From Bdellovibrio sp. (GTDB lineage Bacteria > Bdellovibrionota > Bdellovibrionia > Bdellovibrionales > Bdellovibrionaceae), in the NCBI GenBank assembly GCA_046318155.1, contig JBKCUU010000057.1, positions 1 through 33,253 on the forward strand: DNA of 33,253 nucleotides, given 5' to 3'. Below the pieces are notes generated by a model. That model ran no database searches. It saw nothing but the letters and a program-made list of their open reading frames with translations, and was not told the DNA's origin. The position numbers were made by a program, and so were the translations under genes. Of this stretch, positions 1-26,513 are shown one piece after another (position 1 is the first letter of the stretch; each line of letters opens with the position of its first letter).

Positions 1-113
1 CCGGGAATTCCGCCCCCCCCCCGGGGCTTTTCTAAAGCCCGCTGCTCCCCGTCGAGCAGCGGCGCCTTTGCCTGAAGGGATCTTTTGTTTTAATCAACCA
101 AGCTGAACAGATA

Positions 114-941
114 TTAACCGACGAGTTTCAATGCCATGCCAGGGAAAGTGTTCGCCTGAGCCAGCACCGAAACCGCCGCTTGCTGAAGAACTTGGGCAGA
201 AGCCATCTCAGCAGACTCTTTTGCCACGTCGGTATCGCGGATACGTGAATTAGCCGCCGACAAGTTTTCATACTGGATATCTAAGTTCGATGTCGTTGCA
301 TTCAATCGACTTTGCACAGCACCGAAGTTGGCGCGAAGTTTACCGATTTTTTCAAGAGCATTGTCGACCGATACTAAACTCTCTCGAGCCGACGCCTTGT
401 CTTGCATACTGATTCCTTCTAGACCTAATTCACCTGATGTTGCGTTGGCATCGAGAGAATAAGAGATCGTGTTTTCCTCACCGGCAAATGGGCCGATGTG
501 AAAGGTCATCTCTCTGCCCGATCCGTCAAGAAGGTTCCTGTCACCAAACCGAGTTGTTTTGGCAATACGGTCGGCCTCCGCAATCAACTGATTGGTTTCT
601 TCTTGTAAAAAGCCGCGTTCTTTGTCGCCGATGGTATCAGATGCGCCCTGAATGCCCAACTCTCGCAAACGGATCGCGATGTTGGTAATTTCGTTCAGTC
701 CACCTTCAGAAATCTGAATGGATGATACCGCGCTGAAAGCATTGTTTCGAGCCATGGCCACCCCTCGGATTTGACTGCGCAAAGACTCAGAGATCGCAAG
801 TCCGGCGGCATCATCTGCGGCACTCACGATACGTGATCCCGAGGCCAAGGCTTGTGTCGCATGGTTCATGCGGCTTTGCTGTTTACCCAGCACTCGCTGG
901 GCAGAAATCGAAGGCAGATTCGTTTGTATTCTTAAGCCCAT
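114..941 (-). CDS. fliC: Flagellin (short, 275 aa, little hypervariable domain)
   Basis: N-term MGLRIQTN..ASGSRIVSAADDAAGLAISE and C-term RANFGAVQSRL..SRIRDTDVAKE..LAQAN; start moved to ATG 941 with SD GGGAGG. Confidence 0.95.
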   Translation of the reverse strand: MGLRIQTNLPSISAQRVLGKQQSRMNHATQALASGSRIVSAADDAAGLAISESLRSQIRGVAMARNNAFSAVSSIQISEGGLNEITNIAIRLRELGIQGASDTIGDKERGFLQEETNQLIAEADRIAKTTRFGDRNLLDGSGREMTFHIGPFAGEENTISYSLDANATSGELGLEGISMQDKASARESLVSVDNALEKIGKLRANFGAVQSRLNATTSNLDIQYENLSAANSRIRDTDVAKESAEMASAQVLQQAAVSVLAQANTFPGMALKLVG

Positions 942-1147
942 AAAACAGTCCTCCCAACAGACTTGCGCAATCAGAGTTGCGACTAATGACCTTTGTTTAA
1001 TTGGAGGCCCTGCAAGCCTTGTGGTGACAGACACTCGGCTTGCAGGATTCTTCGAGGAGGACTTTCAGAAATTCTCGTTTGCTTGACTGCGCCGAGGTTT
1101 CTTTGGGTCGATCTCTTTGTCTCCAACGTGTTTAACTACCAACCCAC

Positions 1148-1174
1148 TTCTCGGCCTTGGTCTGGGAACCTTGA
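1148..1174 (-). promoter_or_regulatory. Sigma28/FliA-type promoter of the flagellin at 114-941
   Basis: Minus strand TCAA-N15-GCCGAGAA vs consensus TAAA-N15-GCCGATAA. Confidence 0.75.
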
Positions 1175-1327
1175 GGACCTTGGTCTAGTCTAGTTTATAA
1201 CGCGACGCATCTTGTATTTGATATTGCAACAGAAAGAGCAAAGTAATTTTTTTTAGACCAAGGTCTAGTTTGACTCAAGCTGAGTCAAAAAAAGGAGAGC
1301 CCGTTGCCAGCCCTAGAAGGGTGCTCC

Positions 1328-1366
1328 AAAAAGGGAAAACCCGATCTCTTTTGAGAGGAGTCGGGT
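1328..1366 (-). terminator. Probable intrinsic terminator after the flagellin at 1423-2250
   Basis: Hairpin ACCCGA..TCTCT-TTTG-AGAGG..TCGGGT followed on the minus strand by TTTTCCCTTTTT. Confidence 0.5.
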
Positions 1367-1422
1367 CTTGTCTTGTTCTTTTTGAGCTTTGGCGGGGTCA
1401 ACAGGAGCCTGAAGAGCTGTGG

Positions 1423-2250
1423 TTAGGCCAGGAGTTTCAAAACATTCAGGGGGAACTGGTTCGCCTGCGCAAGAACCGCCACTTGGTATTGCTGAAGCGC
1501 TTGCTTCTTGAACATCTCACTCGTCGCCTCGGCAAAGTCGGTGTCTGCGATGCGCGAGTGCGCCGCCTGCAAATTTTCGTGTTGAACGGCGGCGTTGCTG
1601 ACGACGCTCTCGAGCCTTGATTGAATGGCGCCAAAATTAGCTCTTGCTTTAGCAAGAGTCGTGAGTGCCGAATCAAGCGACTCTAATGAATCGAGCGCCT
1701 CACTTCGGTCATCAACCGATAGGCTCGACACTCCGAGACCACTCGCGGTGGTATTGGTGTTCGACTCATACTTAATCACATTCTCTTCGCCTTTATAGGC
1801 GCCGACCTGAAATTCAAAACTCTTGCTGTCGCCCGAGAGCAATTTGTGAGAGCCAAACTGCGTGGTTTGCGCAATCCGATCGACTTCGCTTCGAAGTTGC
1901 TTAAACTCCATATCCAGCAACTCCCGCTCTTGATCGTCAAAAGTGTCGCTCGCTCCCTGCACAGACAGCTCGCGCATTCGAATCAGAATATTGTTTTGTT
2001 CGTTCAGCCCGCCCTCGGCGATTTGCACAAAAGAAATCGCGTTGTCTGCATTCATCTGCGCCGCGCGTGTCCCTTTTATTTGCCCCCGCAACCGTTCAGC
2101 AATGGCAAAGTCACCGGCGCCAACCGTCGGGTCAGAAAATCGACTGCCAGAAGCCAATTGCTTCAGGTTACTTTCAACTTTTCGTTGCGATTGGACCAAT
2201 TGCCGTTGCGCCGCAATCGACGCGAGGTTGGTATTAATTCGTAGTCCCAC
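1423..2250 (-). CDS. fliC: Flagellin (short, 275 aa), paralogue
   Basis: MGLRINTN..QIAEGGLNE..RMRELSVQ..RANFGAIQSRL..SRIADTDFAE..LAQANQ; GTG start, SD AAGGAGG. Confidence 0.95.
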   Translation of the reverse strand: MGLRINTNLASIAAQRQLVQSQRKVESNLKQLASGSRFSDPTVGAGDFAIAERLRGQIKGTRAAQMNADNAISFVQIAEGGLNEQNNILIRMRELSVQGASDTFDDQERELLDMEFKQLRSEVDRIAQTTQFGSHKLLSGDSKSFEFQVGAYKGEENVIKYESNTNTTASGLGVSSLSVDDRSEALDSLESLDSALTTLAKARANFGAIQSRLESVVSNAAVQHENLQAAHSRIADTDFAEATSEMFKKQALQQYQVAVLAQANQFPLNVLKLLA

Positions 2251-2388
2251 GTGAAAAACCTCCTTGATAAGGAGGAGTCAAAACACCTTGTTTCCGGGCC
2301 TGGACCTTAGGCTGTCACACCCAAGTCCTTGAGTCCCGTTCGCCCACAGATTCGACCCTTAAAGAACCTTCTAACGCAGTCTTCATAC

Positions 2389-2415
2389 TATTCGGCGCAG
2401 CGCGTCAAGACTTTA
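2389..2415 (-). promoter_or_regulatory. Sigma28/FliA-type promoter of the flagellin at 1423-2250
   Basis: Minus strand TAAA-N15-GCCGAATA. Confidence 0.8.
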
Positions 2416-2520
2416 GGATTATTTAGGTTTTTAGGAATTACCAGGTGCAAGTTCGAGCAAAGATTGGGGTTTCTCAAATTGAGACCGAGGCCTCGCCTTT
2501 GGCCCTGATGAGGACACGCC

Positions 2521-3153
2521 CTAAACAAGTCTTCCATTTTCGATTTTCTGAACTCTCTGGGCAAGGGCTTTGAGATCACGGTCATCGTGCGTGACCAAAA
2601 GTGCCGGAATTTTTTCTTCAAGCAAAACTTCTCGAACCAGTTCGCGGGCTTCAGCTCGCAAGTTTTCATCCAAGGCCGAGAAGGGTTCGTCTAAAAGCAA
2701 AAACCGGGGCCGGCTCATCAAGGCCCGCGCCAGAGCCACCCGCTGCTTCTCCCCGCCTGAGAGCAACTGCGCCTTGCGGGTCAAGCAACTCTTCAGACCC
2801 AACCGCTCGGATAGCCGCGAAAGCTGCGCTTTGGTATCAGCCTTGCTCAAGCTTTTGGCTTCGGCCGCGAAGAGAATATTTTCTTGAGCGGTCAAATGCG
2901 GAAATAATTCGTAGTTTTGAAAGACGACGCCCAGATTTTTCTTGGCGACCGGGAGCTTGGCCAAGTCTTGATCCTTGAATATCCAACTAAGCCTGGAGCA
3001 CTCTTCTAGACCCAGCAGAACTCGAAACACCGAGGTTTTGCCCGAGCCACTCGGCCCCCACAGAGCCGTTACTCCAGAATCCAAAATCTCCCAGCGCGGA
3101 ATCTCGAGCTTGAAACTTCCGTAATCACGGATCAGATCCTTAACGACCGACAT
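2521..3153 (-). CDS. thiQ: ABC transporter ATP-binding subunit (ThiQ-like)
   Basis: Walker A GPSGSGKT, LSGGEKQRVA signature, LLLDEP Walker B; operon with thiP/thiB; start at ATG 3153. Confidence 0.8.
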   Translation of the reverse strand: MSVVKDLIRDYGSFKLEIPRWEILDSGVTALWGPSGSGKTSVFRVLLGLEECSRLSWIFKDQDLAKLPVAKKNLGVVFQNYELFPHLTAQENILFAAEAKSLSKADTKAQLSRLSERLGLKSCLTRKAQLLSGGEKQRVALARALMSRPRFLLLDEPFSALDENLRAEARELVREVLLEEKIPALLVTHDDRDLKALAQRVQKIENGRLV

Positions 3154-4558
3154 CTCCCAGCCTCCAAAAAAAAGTAAACAACAGTCCGCCCGAGAACAAA
3201 ATGAGAAAGCCAACGCCCAAGCCCGCCTCGATCCGGTAGCTCGACATCAAAGATTCAGAGAGCAGAGCCCAATTCAAATTTTGCGAGAGCAGCACTCGGC
3301 CCATTGCAAACTCACCAAACGCCCATAGACTCGAAATACCCGCAAGCACGCAGGCTACCTGCCAAATTTGGGGCCTGATCACCCGCCGCCAAATCAAAAA
3401 ATCACTGGCCCCTAAAGTTTGGGCCGTCAAAATTTGCCCTTCAATTGACTCTAGCTTTCGATCAAGACCCAAGCGAAACAGGGGCAAGAAAAATAAAAAG
3501 GCCAAGACAACCGCGTATGTGATCAGGGGATACTGATCGCCGATGCCGAGAAAAGCAAAACCCAGCAGCACCGTGCTAGGCGCAAGCCATGCTCTTGCGA
3601 TGCGCGTGATGTGGTTGCGCGGAAATCCGAGCGAGAACAATAAAAACAGCACTAAACATAAAAGGCCAGTCGCCAAAGAAATCAAAACACTTGGCACCAT
3701 CAACTCCAGCAACTGCTCCCAAAGACCGTCGATTTGATCAATGGCAAGATAGGCTTCTGGCAAATTTCGAACAAGTGGAAACCAAAAAAGCAAAACATAA
3801 AGCGCGCAGCCGGCCAGCCCCCAGCGACTTTTGAGCACGTGCAAGCGTTCGGCCCGGTGGGCCTCAAGTCGCACCTGACTTCTAGGCAAAAAGAGAAACA
3901 GCGCCATAATGGCGAGTTGGATCAAGCCAAGCCCGAGAGCCTCGCCCATTTGACTCGAGACTCTGATTTTTTCATAAATGAGAACTTCTATGTTTGTCGC
4001 GCGTCCGCCTCCGATCACAAGAGGGATCGAAAAGTTGGCAAAGCAAAATGAAAAAATCGCGACGCCGACCGAGACAAGATCTAAAAAAACGAGACGAAGC
4101 GACCTTCGAAAAAACAAGAACCGCGAAGATCCCAACACAAGTGCTGCTTCAGAAAGACCCTGCAACTTTGTTTCAAAAATCCGCGCGAGCAGCACGGCGG
4201 CGAGCCCCGCATTCAAAAAACCTTGGACAAGAACAACGCCGATCAATCCCACCGGAAACGGATCAACCCAAGTTAAAAAAGACAAAAGAACAAATAAAGG
4301 CGGAAGCAAAGATGGCAGCAGCAAGAGCCAAGACAGCAAACCCTTGAACCGCTCTTGGACCTGCCAAAGCCCGAGCATCAATGGGATTGCCGCAAACAGC
4401 GCAACGATCGAAGAGCCCAGTCCCTGAAGAAGTGAATTTTTAAGTGCCCATAAAAGTTCAGAGCCCTCGGGCAAACTGAAACTTGCAATTTGGCGGGTCA
4501 GCAAAAGATAGGGAAGGGCCAGCAGCAGTAAGGCGAGGAACAAAATTCCCCTGCTCAT
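3140..4558 (-). CDS. thiP: ABC transporter permease, two-module (ThiP-like)
   Basis: Multi-TM with two EAA-like loops (EAALVLGSS, TAQTLGAS). Confidence 0.8.
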   Translation of the reverse strand: MSRGILFLALLLLALPYLLLTRQIASFSLPEGSELLWALKNSLLQGLGSSIVALFAAIPLMLGLWQVQERFKGLLSWLLLLPSLLPPLFVLLSFLTWVDPFPVGLIGVVLVQGFLNAGLAAVLLARIFETKLQGLSEAALVLGSSRFLFFRRSLRLVFLDLVSVGVAIFSFCFANFSIPLVIGGGRATNIEVLIYEKIRVSSQMGEALGLGLIQLAIMALFLFLPRSQVRLEAHRAERLHVLKSRWGLAGCALYVLLFWFPLVRNLPEAYLAIDQIDGLWEQLLELMVPSVLISLATGLLCLVLFLLFSLGFPRNHITRIARAWLAPSTVLLGFAFLGIGDQYPLITYAVVLAFLFFLPLFRLGLDRKLESIEGQILTAQTLGASDFLIWRRVIRPQIWQVACVLAGISSLWAFGEFAMGRVLLSQNLNWALLSESLMSSYRIEAGLGVGFLILFSGGLLFTFFWRLGDVGR

Positions 4559-4561
4559 CTC

Positions 4562-5593
4562 TTACTCCATCCGGCGCAGAGCCGACCACTTTCGCAGCAA
4601 GCGCTCGCGCTCCGCCTGCGATGGAACAATCTCATAGGGGCGAAGCTTGTACGGAGGGATCTCACCAAAAATCGTTCCGTCTTTGACGGCCTTAATGACG
4701 GGGAACATGTAGTTCTTCTCCATCACGACTTTTTGGCCTTCTTTAGAAAGAACCAACTCGGCAAACTTTTGGGCCAAATCACATTGTTGGCAATTGGCAG
4801 GGATCCCCATAAATTCAAATTGCAGGGGATGGCCTTCGTTCAGTTCAACGGCCACAACATCCAGATTTTTTTCTTCAACTTTATGGTAGACCGGCGATGT
4901 TGTGTAACTAAACACCGTCATCGCTTGCGCTTTGGTGAAGAGCCCGTAAGCCATTGACCAACTTGTCGAATACGCTTTCACCTGCGCGTTGAATCTTTTG
5001 AGATACTCCCAAGCTCCCTCTTCACCGCGAATATCGATTAACCAAAGCAAAAACTGCAAACCAGGCGATGAGGTTCGCGGATCCTGCATTGATATCTGCC
5101 CTTTCCATTCAGGCTTCAAAAAATCGTCTAAGTTTTTTGGAAACTGCGCGAGCTCTGATTTGCGAAAAACAAAACTCATCACGCCGAAATCGTAAGGCAC
5201 AAATTCAGGCTGCGCCAAAGCGGGCTTGGCCTCGTCTTCAAAATCAAGCCCTTGAACAGAGATGGGCTTCCAGTTAATCCCGGCCGTTGCCATCTCGAGG
5301 TCAAATTGATCAAAACCCAATACGATATCGGCGCCAACGCGCGCCTCGGACTTCAAACGCTGCATCAAAATAGTCGAGTCAGCACCATCAAAAAATTCGA
5401 CTCGGCAATGGCACGTTTGCTCAAACTGAGTCCGCAGCCAAGGACCGGGACCCCACTGGGCAATAAACGAAGACGACGCAAAGACGCGCAAGACAGGTTT
5501 TGTTTCTTTCGAAGGGTCGCGGCTATTTTTTACAAAAAGGGCCAAAAACAAAACCGCAAAAATGACCACCAAGAACGAGAGGAAATGTTTCAT
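4562..5593 (-). CDS. thiB: Thiamine ABC transporter substrate-binding protein
   Basis: WGPGP, DPRTSSPG, SYTTSP motifs typical of TbpA/ThiB; N-terminal anchor; start ATG 5593. Confidence 0.88.
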   Translation of the reverse strand: MKHFLSFLVVIFAVLFLALFVKNSRDPSKETKPVLRVFASSSFIAQWGPGPWLRTQFEQTCHCRVEFFDGADSTILMQRLKSEARVGADIVLGFDQFDLEMATAGINWKPISVQGLDFEDEAKPALAQPEFVPYDFGVMSFVFRKSELAQFPKNLDDFLKPEWKGQISMQDPRTSSPGLQFLLWLIDIRGEEGAWEYLKRFNAQVKAYSTSWSMAYGLFTKAQAMTVFSYTTSPVYHKVEEKNLDVVAVELNEGHPLQFEFMGIPANCQQCDLAQKFAELVLSKEGQKVVMEKNYMFPVIKAVKDGTIFGEIPPYKLRPYEIVPSQAERERLLRKWSALRRME

Positions 5594-5594
5594 G

Positions 5595-6077
5595 TTACCA
5601 CCAGATCCCGCGGCGGCGTTTGAAGAAGTAGTAATCAAATCCCAGACAGCGGCCCGCACCGATCCAAGCTAGTAACAAATGGGTCGCCATCAATAAGCGC
5701 GCAAGCTCATCATTTCCTGGTCCCGCCAACACCAATTGATTGAGCGCCATCAGCGCCGCCAAAATCGCGATCGGACGAACAACGTAACCAAGTAAATAAG
5801 AGATCGCGATGGCGAACTCGAGCCCCACGACGACAAACGCAAAAGTTTGCCAGTGCGGAATAAAAACCGAATCGATCACATTTTTATACCAGAGAGGAGC
5901 TTGCAGAGCGGGAAGGATCTCGGCAATTTCACCCGCTAAGCGAGGCCGAATGAGATAATCTGAATTAAATTTAAGCAGGGCTGCTTGCAAATACGTGTAA
6001 CCCAAAAAAACACGCAAGAACGACAAAGGAACTAAATGACCGACGTATTTAACGCTCTCAAAAAACGCTGCAAACAT
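5595..6077 (-). CDS. DoxX-family membrane protein
   Basis: LRVFLGY, GLEFAIAISYLLG, GAGRCLGFD motifs. Confidence 0.75.
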   Translation of the reverse strand: MFAAFFESVKYVGHLVPLSFLRVFLGYTYLQAALLKFNSDYLIRPRLAGEIAEILPALQAPLWYKNVIDSVFIPHWQTFAFVVVGLEFAIAISYLLGYVVRPIAILAALMALNQLVLAGPGNDELARLLMATHLLLAWIGAGRCLGFDYYFFKRRRGIWW

Positions 6078-25416: not shown

Positions 25417-26508
25417 TCAGAACTGATAACAATTTAAACGCTGATCCTGGCTCGGCAAGAATTGCCCCGACCGCTCATCTTGCTCCAGCATGAGGTCGCA
25501 AAACTCTTGCGGTCCCAGGCGAAAAAAAATGCCGCAGAGCTGTTTCGAGGCGCCCGAGGGCTCGCAGCGAAGGTTTGTTTGGACAGTCCGTGAAATCCTG
25601 TTGATGACGTCGGCGCCATAGGCTTGAGTCAAGAGCTGGTGGGGCCTGTCGAGCTCAAGGTCTTTTTCAAAGGGGCGAGTCACCTTAAAGAGTCTTTGGC
25701 GGAGTTCGGCCTCAAATGCAGGGGCCAAATCCAATCTTAAGGGTGATGCTTTGTGCACGACCGCCGGAGTTGGTTCTTTCATTTTAGCTTCAAGAAGACT
25801 GGTTTGTGTGGGCGTCCAACCGCGCTGGATCTCTTCATCGATCTCAAGCGGCGAAGTTTGAAAACCGGCCAAAACTGAAAGAGCCACTAAGTTGTCAGAA
25901 TTTTGAGTTGTGAGCTTGAGCCACTCAAGCAAAGGACGCGGCTCACCCAAAAGTGTGAGGTCGAGCGAGTAGTACTGAAGTTTGTTGTCGGTCTCGCGAA
26001 CCAGGATAAACGGAGCCACGTGAAAGCCCCATGAGATTTTGGCTTGGTCCAATGGAATATGGCGAGAGATCACCTGCAGGTGACCGCCCAAGTGCAGATT
26101 CATGGCGCGGATGTTTTCGCGAGATTGCAGGTAAAATGAAATCAGTTCCGCGCGCCCCGCGCAGCCATTCATGTCGTAAGAGAACGAAACGGGCAAACTT
26201 TTGATCTTGCTTGTGAGCTCGGCCAACTGGGATTTGGGAACAATGGTCAGCTGCTTGTTCAATTTGGCATTGGCCTGTAAACGTCGCAAAAGTTCTTCGG
26301 GCTCCATAAAGGGCATCCGCGCATACTGCTTTTTGATCTGGCGTTCGCACTCGTCCAAACCCAAATCGGTATAGCGCATGCAGTCTCCATGACGTTTCTC
26401 TAAAAAGTCTTCGAAAGGCGGCTTTGGCTTTTTTGCAGGCGCCGCCGTCACCGGCGCGGAGGCACCGAGAATAAATCCGAGAAAAAAAAGAAGCCTCGCT
26501 GCTTTCAT
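25417..26508 (-). CDS. Secreted protein with protein-glutamine glutaminase-like domain
   Basis: Signal peptide; GCAGRA, WGFHVAP, YSLD resemble the Cys-His-Asp triad motifs. Confidence 0.65.
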   Translation of the reverse strand: MKAARLLFFLGFILGASAPVTAAPAKKPKPPFEDFLEKRHGDCMRYTDLGLDECERQIKKQYARMPFMEPEELLRRLQANAKLNKQLTIVPKSQLAELTSKIKSLPVSFSYDMNGCAGRAELISFYLQSRENIRAMNLHLGGHLQVISRHIPLDQAKISWGFHVAPFILVRETDNKLQYYSLDLTLLGEPRPLLEWLKLTTQNSDNLVALSVLAGFQTSPLEIDEEIQRGWTPTQTSLLEAKMKEPTPAVVHKASPLRLDLAPAFEAELRQRLFKVTRPFEKDLELDRPHQLLTQAYGADVINRISRTVQTNLRCEPSGASKQLCGIFFRLGPQEFCDLMLEQDERSGQFLPSQDQRLNCYQF

Positions 26509-26513
26509 CAAGA

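Follow-up and report, generated by a model that had tools for sequence, protein, structure and literature searches.

Comparative analysis indicates that the leaders of three flagellin mRNAs of Bdellovibrio sp. belong to a real and conserved pairing system, in which the leader RNAs very probably pair with each other in trans. The window analysed is a stretch of 33,253 nucleotides containing two of the genes, designated flagellin A (gene 941) and flagellin B (gene 2250), and the third, flagellin C, is located on another contig of the same genome (G000). As judged from related genomes, selection maintains the complementarity of all four contacts (S1 to S4) on the mRNA strand, and loss of B is accompanied by loss of S2. 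A previous reading of this DNA (hereafter the sequence-only reading) had proposed the pairing of the B and A leaders, which stands; it had overlooked flagellin C as a third partner, the kissing-loop contacts and a contact on the ribosome-binding site (RBS) of B.

Flagellin genes and promoters in the window

Both flagellin genes of the window are encoded on the minus strand. Flagellin A (114..941; 275 aa) starts at an ATG at position 941, 3′ of a Shine-Dalgarno (SD) sequence at 949..954; a longer version starting at 1034, given by the ORF caller, was dismissed as being without conservation. Flagellin B (1423..2250; 275 aa) has a GUG start and belongs to a divergent clade. Both proteins contain domains PF00669 and PF00700 and share 51% identity. 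The genome is 95% complete and encodes seven flagellins. A flagellin tree from 16 genomes revealed clades B, A, C, D/E, F and G, and B-A-C was the usual gene arrangement in these genomes; the named relatives are for the most part Bdellovibrionales. On the basis of gene order, lengths and the fit of the published Bd0606 promoter to the C-class consensus, A appears to be fliC1-like and C fliC2-like. Six flagellins are described in B. bacteriovorus (PMC2791853), a species that appears to be devoid of flagellin B. Single deviations were observed among the relatives: genome G020 has two C copies with short leaders, and no sites are recognisable in its A leader; a D-type flagellin is split in G066. 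Elsewhere in the window (25417-26511), an ORF with a Gln_deamidase_2 domain (PF18626) adjoins rmuC-like and HNH genes and bears no relation to flagellin pairing. An Rfam scan of window positions 1-6000 gave two hits only, both below the gathering score, and no match at gathering score was obtained in four related loci.

The separate sigma28 promoters that the sequence-only reading had assigned to both genes were recovered as sigma28-type promoters at 1174-1148 for A and 2415-2389 for B, both on the minus strand. The +1 of A is predicted near 1140 by analogy to the start sites listed in PMC3627812 (Table S2). In part 1 of 2 of that table, the +1 of published FliA promoters is placed mostly 7-8 nt past the -10 octamer, a spacing that makes the first base of the B arm (2381) the predicted +1 of B. 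This base is the eighth past the -10 octamer, the position of the measured Bd0606 start (PMC3627812 Table S2), in line with the proposed location of the arm at the predicted 5′ end of the transcript. Among relatives, 61/66 anchored B arms begin at the predicted +1, as does S1 of A in 61/87 cases. Two RNA read runs contained 5-7% of the words, with coverage restricted to coding scraps and the leaders uncovered. Downstream of B, terminator-like hairpins were identified at 1296..1366 on the minus strand (1366-1339, with a U-tract, and 1314-1296), and a perfect hairpin (1269-1289) is situated between this region and the A promoter.

Inspection of the promoters revealed a palindrome (AYGCRNYGCRT), a candidate regulator site, at 1200..1210 (unstranded), ca. 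40 nt upstream of the -35 box of A, and at 2395-2405, within the spacer of the B promoter. The palindrome is present in 87/119 A promoters and 58/76 B promoters (50 of them within the spacer) and in 0/47 C promoters, and only seven exact copies exist in the genome. A single regulator acting at this site may activate A and repress B, and such placement would fit an order of expression of B and then A. CTRGAC/GTCYAG boxes (1183 and 1263 in the window), candidate sites of a second regulator, occur at a mean of 2.1 copies at A promoters, 2.4 at C promoters and 0.03 at B promoters.

Elements of the A and B leaders

The 5′ end of the A mRNA (1116..1139, minus strand, as are all leader elements below) contains S1 (1133-1121) and the overlapping S4, and is followed by S2 (1085..1113). 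Further downstream are an anti-SD-like GUCCUCC (1056..1062) that pairs with the SD of A in the predicted fold, a hairpin (1009..1046) with loop CUGUCAC (1030-1024) corresponding to S3, and a conserved CUCCAAU motif (1000..1006), followed by an A/U-rich linker. This motif is a candidate cis partner of S1 that would close a domain of ca. 120 nt (helix P1); in relatives, the 5′ domain of A ends between +101 and +143 (median 122). Covariation was assessed by sister swaps, in which partners are exchanged within edge-disjoint sister pairs, allowing for kinship. By this procedure, no covariation signal was obtained for P1 (10 better/10 worse/14 ties) or for the anti-SD pairing (15 better/12 worse/7 ties), and single-leader folding was no better than that of shuffled sequences (z -1.26 and 0.06).

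The B leader begins with the 5′ arm (2349..2381), which overlaps a conserved UCUGUGGGCG (2341..2350) found in 60/73 leaders. This segment pairs in cis with the RBS region of B across relatives (swaps 18 better/3 worse, n=21), and the conservation of its near-invariant UCUGUGGG core (2341-2350) exceeds the apparent need of cis pairing. A hairpin loop GUGACAG (2312..2318), complementary to the S3 loop of A, has counterparts in only 15/73 B leaders. In the start region (2241..2277), the SD (2265-2259) is contained within a hairpin (2277-2259) followed by U5. This arrangement is terminator-like; in relatives the RBS pairs with a UGUGGGC segment.

Pairing of the B and A leaders in this genome

Site S2 in the leader of A (1085..1113) shows complementarity to nucleotides 1-33 of the B mRNA (2349..2381). 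Both arms were located in the leaders of the two minus-strand flagellins, and their alignment by hand resulted in 26 Watson-Crick and 2 G·U pairs with 6 bulged A, in agreement with the claim of some 28 bp in which all imperfections are G-U wobbles or bulged A. The optimal arm duplex calculated with ViennaRNA has a slightly shifted register (-33.8 kcal/mol). Pairing of B nucleotides 1-35 with the whole A leader reached -37.7 kcal/mol, a value attained by 0/1000 dinucleotide shuffles of A (mean -21.8, sd 2.8, best -37.4 kcal/mol) in the control proposed by the sequence-only reading. With the exception of the antisense strand of B itself, the A leader outranked all other candidates when 4,077 ORF-upstream regions were compared (runner-up, -35.5). 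When the arms were read on the opposite strands, the duplex was nearly as stable as on the mRNA strands (-32.0 vs -33.8 kcal/mol). Given this near equality and the modest margin observed in this genome, the strand argument rests on comparative data. It has to be noted that the arm pair was missing from the 25 longest inverted repeats listed by an ungapped repeat finder, as would be anticipated for arms with bulges.

Conservation and covariation of S2

To define the S2 test set, 7 pairs with a weak promoter call and 2 near-duplicates were removed from 65 B-A pairs, leaving 56, and the windows were placed by promoter position alone. Cognate leaders paired with a mean energy of -34.7 kcal/mol, as compared with -21.5 kcal/mol for non-cognate combinations, a difference matched by 0/100,000 permutations; the cognate partner ranked first in 34/56 cases and within the top 5 in 49/56. 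This cognate advantage in 56 pairs places the complementarity in related genomes as well, where its absence had been named as an argument against the system. Among the 7 pairs dropped, pairing was good in 4, partial in 2 and absent in 1. In a held-out set of 19 later pairs, 8 ranked first and 17 were in the top 10 of 73; L181 and L220 failed. Absence of an S2 match in the presence of both genes was recorded for G019 and G034 (both arms lost) and for L220, with L181 at rank 42; G019 and G034 were excluded from the later set of 73 pairs.

Of the 605 cells in columns 1-11 of S2 in 55 motif-anchored pairs, 544 were Watson-Crick; the remainder consisted of 27 G·U, 4 A·C and 30 other combinations. 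With shuffled partners, the Watson-Crick count did not exceed 466. Double changes were observed in columns 2 and 4-9. In sister swaps, the cognate combination was better in 29 cases, worse in 3 and tied in 1 (33 in all), as compared with 18/12/3 in a coding-sequence control. Covariation was also observed in L096, where B is located 8 kb from A. In f14, a family of the same class and another order, the arm sequences are unrelated to those described above, yet they are complementary in 4/4 genomes with both genes, the duplex spanning the short leader of B through its SD in all four. Compensatory changes in orthologous pairs, a check suggested by the sequence-only reading, are thus kept across Bdellovibrionales and in a second order. 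On the other hand, S2 was missing in 9/9 genomes with no B in their flagellin list; since a single genus accounts for four of them, all closed, and some of the others are fragmented, these cases represent perhaps five losses. The comparative data demonstrate, at the level of sequence, that S2 is under selection. Outside the class, the partial flagellin sets of ten genomes contained no helix above 14, and the best ones were mostly A/U-rich. A 12-nt copy of the B arm of L112 (G021) was noticed ca. 309 nt before a D-type flagellin of the same genome, probably by chance.

Strand preference and pairing in trans

Over S2 and S1, G·U combinations outnumbered A·C by 37:4 (p 1e-7; rows not independent), a bias that supports the earlier proposal of selection acting on RNA rather than on DNA pairing. 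At the DNA level, the arms form an inverted repeat on either side of B, and their two strand readings are only 1.8 kcal/mol apart in this genome; they might be regarded as elements for inversion or phase variation, as a protein site used in two orientations, or as a product of chance. We consider such explanations very improbable in view of the G·U to A·C ratio, the frequent bulges, the association of the arm with the +1, and the complete sequence turnover in f14 with retention of pairing. No recombinase was found among 33 scanned window ORFs.

Pairing in cis within a B-to-A read-through transcript would be compatible with the adjacent, co-directional position of the genes in most genomes. However, in 11 of the 73 pairs the genes are separated by 2.9-8.8 kb or lie divergently on opposite strands, and every one of these pairs retained the pairing, with ranks 1-9; the divergent pair L099 contradicts pairing in cis. 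In addition, A is preceded by a conserved promoter of its own and B is followed by terminator-like hairpins, so that there is very little room for this explanation. Furthermore, the partner arms are separate loci with imperfect pairing and are not transcribed opposite their own target, unlike a cis-encoded antisense RNA. The compensatory changes, together with the separated and opposite-strand layouts, argue for the pairing of the two flagellin leaders in trans that the sequence-only reading had put forward.

Additional contacts among flagellin leaders

Analysis of the remaining leaders revealed that S1, the first ca. 13 nt of A, can pair with the C leader (G000:C97:17074-17060) in a 13-bp helix. 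Of the 380 cells in the 38/43 pairs that were anchored, 361 were Watson-Crick (shuffled maximum, 339) and 10 were G·U, with 0 A·C, and sister swaps gave 22 better, 2 worse and 1 tie. In this genome, C shared third place by energy when all upstream regions were ranked for S1, which taken alone is therefore unremarkable here. For S3, the CUGUCAC loop of A is complementary to GUGACAG loops in both C (G000:C97:17126-17120) and B. With 33/43 pairs anchored, 215/231 cells were paired (shuffled maximum, 210; some anchors are wrong), and swaps resulted in 11 better, 0 worse and 14 ties. Matched changes at this site were found in several lineages, with CAAUCAC facing GUGAUUG where this genome has CUGUCAC facing GUGACAG, and a three-way compensatory change was identified in L131 (G007), with CGUCAA in the A loop and UUGACG in the B and C loops.

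The bases just past S1 (S4) pair with the SD-to-start region of B, although more weakly than S2. Cognate S4 pairing averaged -13.1 vs -10.4 for non-cognate partners (0/100,000 permutations; swaps 22 better/8 worse/3 ties). This contact is variable, being in the top 5 in only 27/73 pairs and at rank 13 in this genome, where cofolding places the 5′ end of A across the GUG of B. In an all-against-all comparison of 21 class pairs (seven flagellin classes, 16 genomes), B-A (p 0.0006) and A-C (p 0.0021) passed Bonferroni correction and the others did not; the near misses A-D2, B-D1, A-G and C-G showed pairing without a common position. The GGUCAC loop of D-type leaders is unchanged where the C loop has changed (G054 and G066), G·U pairing being still possible, and C leaders have a conserved GUAGGU hairpin loop close to the start codon.

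Predicted consequences of leader pairing

The contact on the RBS of B points to repression of B by A as the likely direction of coupling, and we consider it probable, from the predicted contacts, that the 5′ domain of A represses B translation. According to this model, the first ca. 120 nt of the A transcript would constitute a trans-acting RNA hub and a built-in antisense repressor of B. Site S2 would anneal to the first nucleotides of the B mRNA, and S4 would cover its SD-to-start region, looping out the internal hairpin of B and blocking initiation. Expression of A would result in less B translation, perhaps accompanied by mRNA decay through RNase III or RNase E/G, and the acting form could be either the full A mRNA or a released leader fragment. 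A profile search of the genome (95% complete) identified RNase III, RNase E/G, CsrA and FliW, whereas Hfq (PF17209), ProQ (PF04352) and RNase J (TIGR00649) were not found in it.

Folding of 70/73 pairs gave an unpaired fraction for the RBS of B of 0.35 alone, 0.28 with cognate A, 0.30 with non-cognate A and 0.345 with shuffled A (cognate vs non-cognate, p=0.056). Since this RBS is already partly paired in cis, the predicted extra repression is small. The reverse arrangement, in which the 5′ arm of B hides its own SD and A frees it, was contradicted by the predictions, as the RBS of B was closed in 38/73 pairs and opened in 7/73. Iida et al. reported that single flagellin mutants keep similar band intensities of the remaining flagellins (PMC2791853), an observation that counts against A repressing B; these mutants may retain the leaders.

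The C leader would meet the A domain through the S3 loop-loop kiss and the 13-bp S1 helix on the first nucleotides of A and, since S1 overlaps S4, C and B should compete for A. When S1 was blocked, the RBS of C did not change (0.55 vs 0.55) and that of A opened slightly (0.41 to 0.47), so folding predicts no outcome for the A-C pairing. A switch in which C frees a CUCCAAC motif to close the SD of A was unsupported (swaps 13/10/11, and the RBS of A was opened instead). Together with the promoter palindrome (B repressed, A activated), the contacts could allow a post-transcriptional hand-over among the three flagellins, which could sharpen the flagellin ratio or the block order in the filament. 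An ordered B-A-C relay is possible but doubtful. We propose with the same reserve its chaperone-free form, with full-length mRNAs, in which A would capture the first nucleotides of B, C those of A, and C would displace B after the loop-loop kiss. If such a relay operates, the order of filament blocks would be encoded by strand displacement between the mRNAs of paralogues, a regulatory logic that we have not found described.

Alternatively, each contact might cap the 5′-terminal nucleotides of the partner mRNA, those of B being covered by A and those of A by C, and stabilise it against 5′-end-dependent decay. The frequent start of the B arm and S1 at the predicted +1, the presence of an RNase E/G gene and the precedent of hly-prsA2 (PMC8722363) are in line with this possibility, but RNase J was not found in this 95% complete genome, and the duplex also covers the SD of B (fully in f14), which is not required for stabilisation. 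Overall we regard 5′-end protection as unlikely, and it may apply to the A-C contact; levels of partner flagellin mRNAs would then be positively coupled. Slightly less likely still is a scaffold without regulation of output, in which the leaders would bind the three mRNAs in one complex and flagellins would be made together near the export gate. A multivalent, chaperone-free design with kissing loops, in a genome where Hfq and ProQ were not found, and the lack of predicted effect on the RBS of C are consistent with such a scaffold; the overlap of S1 and S4 suits competition rather than co-assembly, and occlusion of the SD of B is predicted. If the A-B pairing is repressive, as we favour, it could contribute to the composition of the flagellar filament.

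Discussion

The tapered filament of B. bacteriovorus consists of ordered blocks of FliC3, 5, 1, 2 and 6 (PMC2791853), and no mechanism for this order is offered in the available part of that report. No paper describing flagellin leader pairings was found in literature searches, with most subscription journals outside their scope. The contacts described here between fliC1-like and fliC2-like leaders are defined at the base level and are testable in a predator that is in culture and amenable to genetics. Only a few mRNA-mRNA pairs are known from bacteria, each of them a single case; the flagellin leaders form a three-member, leader-to-leader system held by covariation across a class, and apparently free of Hfq and ProQ. 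These data suggest that other multi-flagellin bacteria and other sets of paralogues merit the same screen.

Comparison with known systems

In ColE1 RNA I/II and CopA/CopT, kissing-loop antisense RNAs are cis-encoded and perfectly complementary to their targets. The flagellin leaders resemble them in combining loop-loop contact and a helix with no chaperone, and differ in being trans-encoded, with the match kept by co-evolution.

The closest functional parallel is FlaX, an sRNA of Vibrio cholerae that is cut from a flagellin 3′ UTR by RNase E, is bound by ProQ and represses flaB (PMC11879080); its authors suggest flagellin cross-inhibition as a general concept. In both cases RNA from a flagellin transcript pairs with the 5′ UTR of a paralogue at several sites including the RBS, as indicated for the A domain by complementarity and covariation only. 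FlaX shifts filament composition and represses its target, and the same is proposed for the A domain. Unlike FlaX, the A element resides in the 5′ leader, from +1 to about +120, its seed covers the first nucleotides of the target, ProQ and Hfq were not found in this genome (95% complete), and the regulator is in turn bound by a third flagellin leader via kissing loops. Compared by description rather than by sequence, the A domain would work like FlaX and appears to be unrelated to it.

Trans pairing carried by mRNAs has been described for the hly 3′ UTR of Listeria, which covers the 5′ end of prsA2, and for the irvA 5′ UTR of Streptococcus mutans, which pairs with the gbpC coding sequence (PMC8722363). 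The flagellin leaders share with hly the contact on the partner 5′ end and with irvA the use of their own 5′ UTR. Those systems, as presented in that source, involve protection from RNase J, unrelated genes and one pair each, whereas here the predicted pairing is between leaders of paralogues, in a genome (95% complete) in which RNase J was not found. In E. coli, the UTR-derived, sigma28-dependent sRNAs MotR, FliX, FlgO and UhpU tune flagellin levels (PMC10578931). They are Hfq-associated, MotR and FliX pair in coding sequences, and the available part of the report describes no pairing of paralogous leaders. Protein-based control of flagellin leaders is exerted by CsrA-FliW (PMC13443453), and csrA and fliW are located side by side in this genome (G000:C50:28053-28822). 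Hairpins with GGA loops, scored by eye, are several in C, D, F and G leaders and few in A and B; this uneven distribution indicates that protein and RNA control may be split among paralogues. Complementarity that is specific to each genome cannot be accounted for by CsrA-FliW, which probably operates in parallel with the RNA contacts.

Finally, the transcriptome of B. bacteriovorus HD100 includes APsRNA3, a 128-nt RNA with a FliA promoter that starts 276 nt before Bd0604 (fliC1) (PMC3627812). Its expression (14,726 RPKM) is similar to that of Bd0604 (11,984), a gene without a row in the available start-site table, and in the accessible text of that report the RNA is assigned neither a function nor a target, and no homologues are given for it outside B. 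bacteriovorus. APsRNA3 fits the 5′ domain of A in place and size (median domain end, +122) and, as judged from the published coordinates, is probably the same element. The A domain may thus be released as a fragment, although similar levels of APsRNA3 and its gene fit a plain leader too. With this correspondence, an orphan RNA of B. bacteriovorus would gain a likely target and a family.
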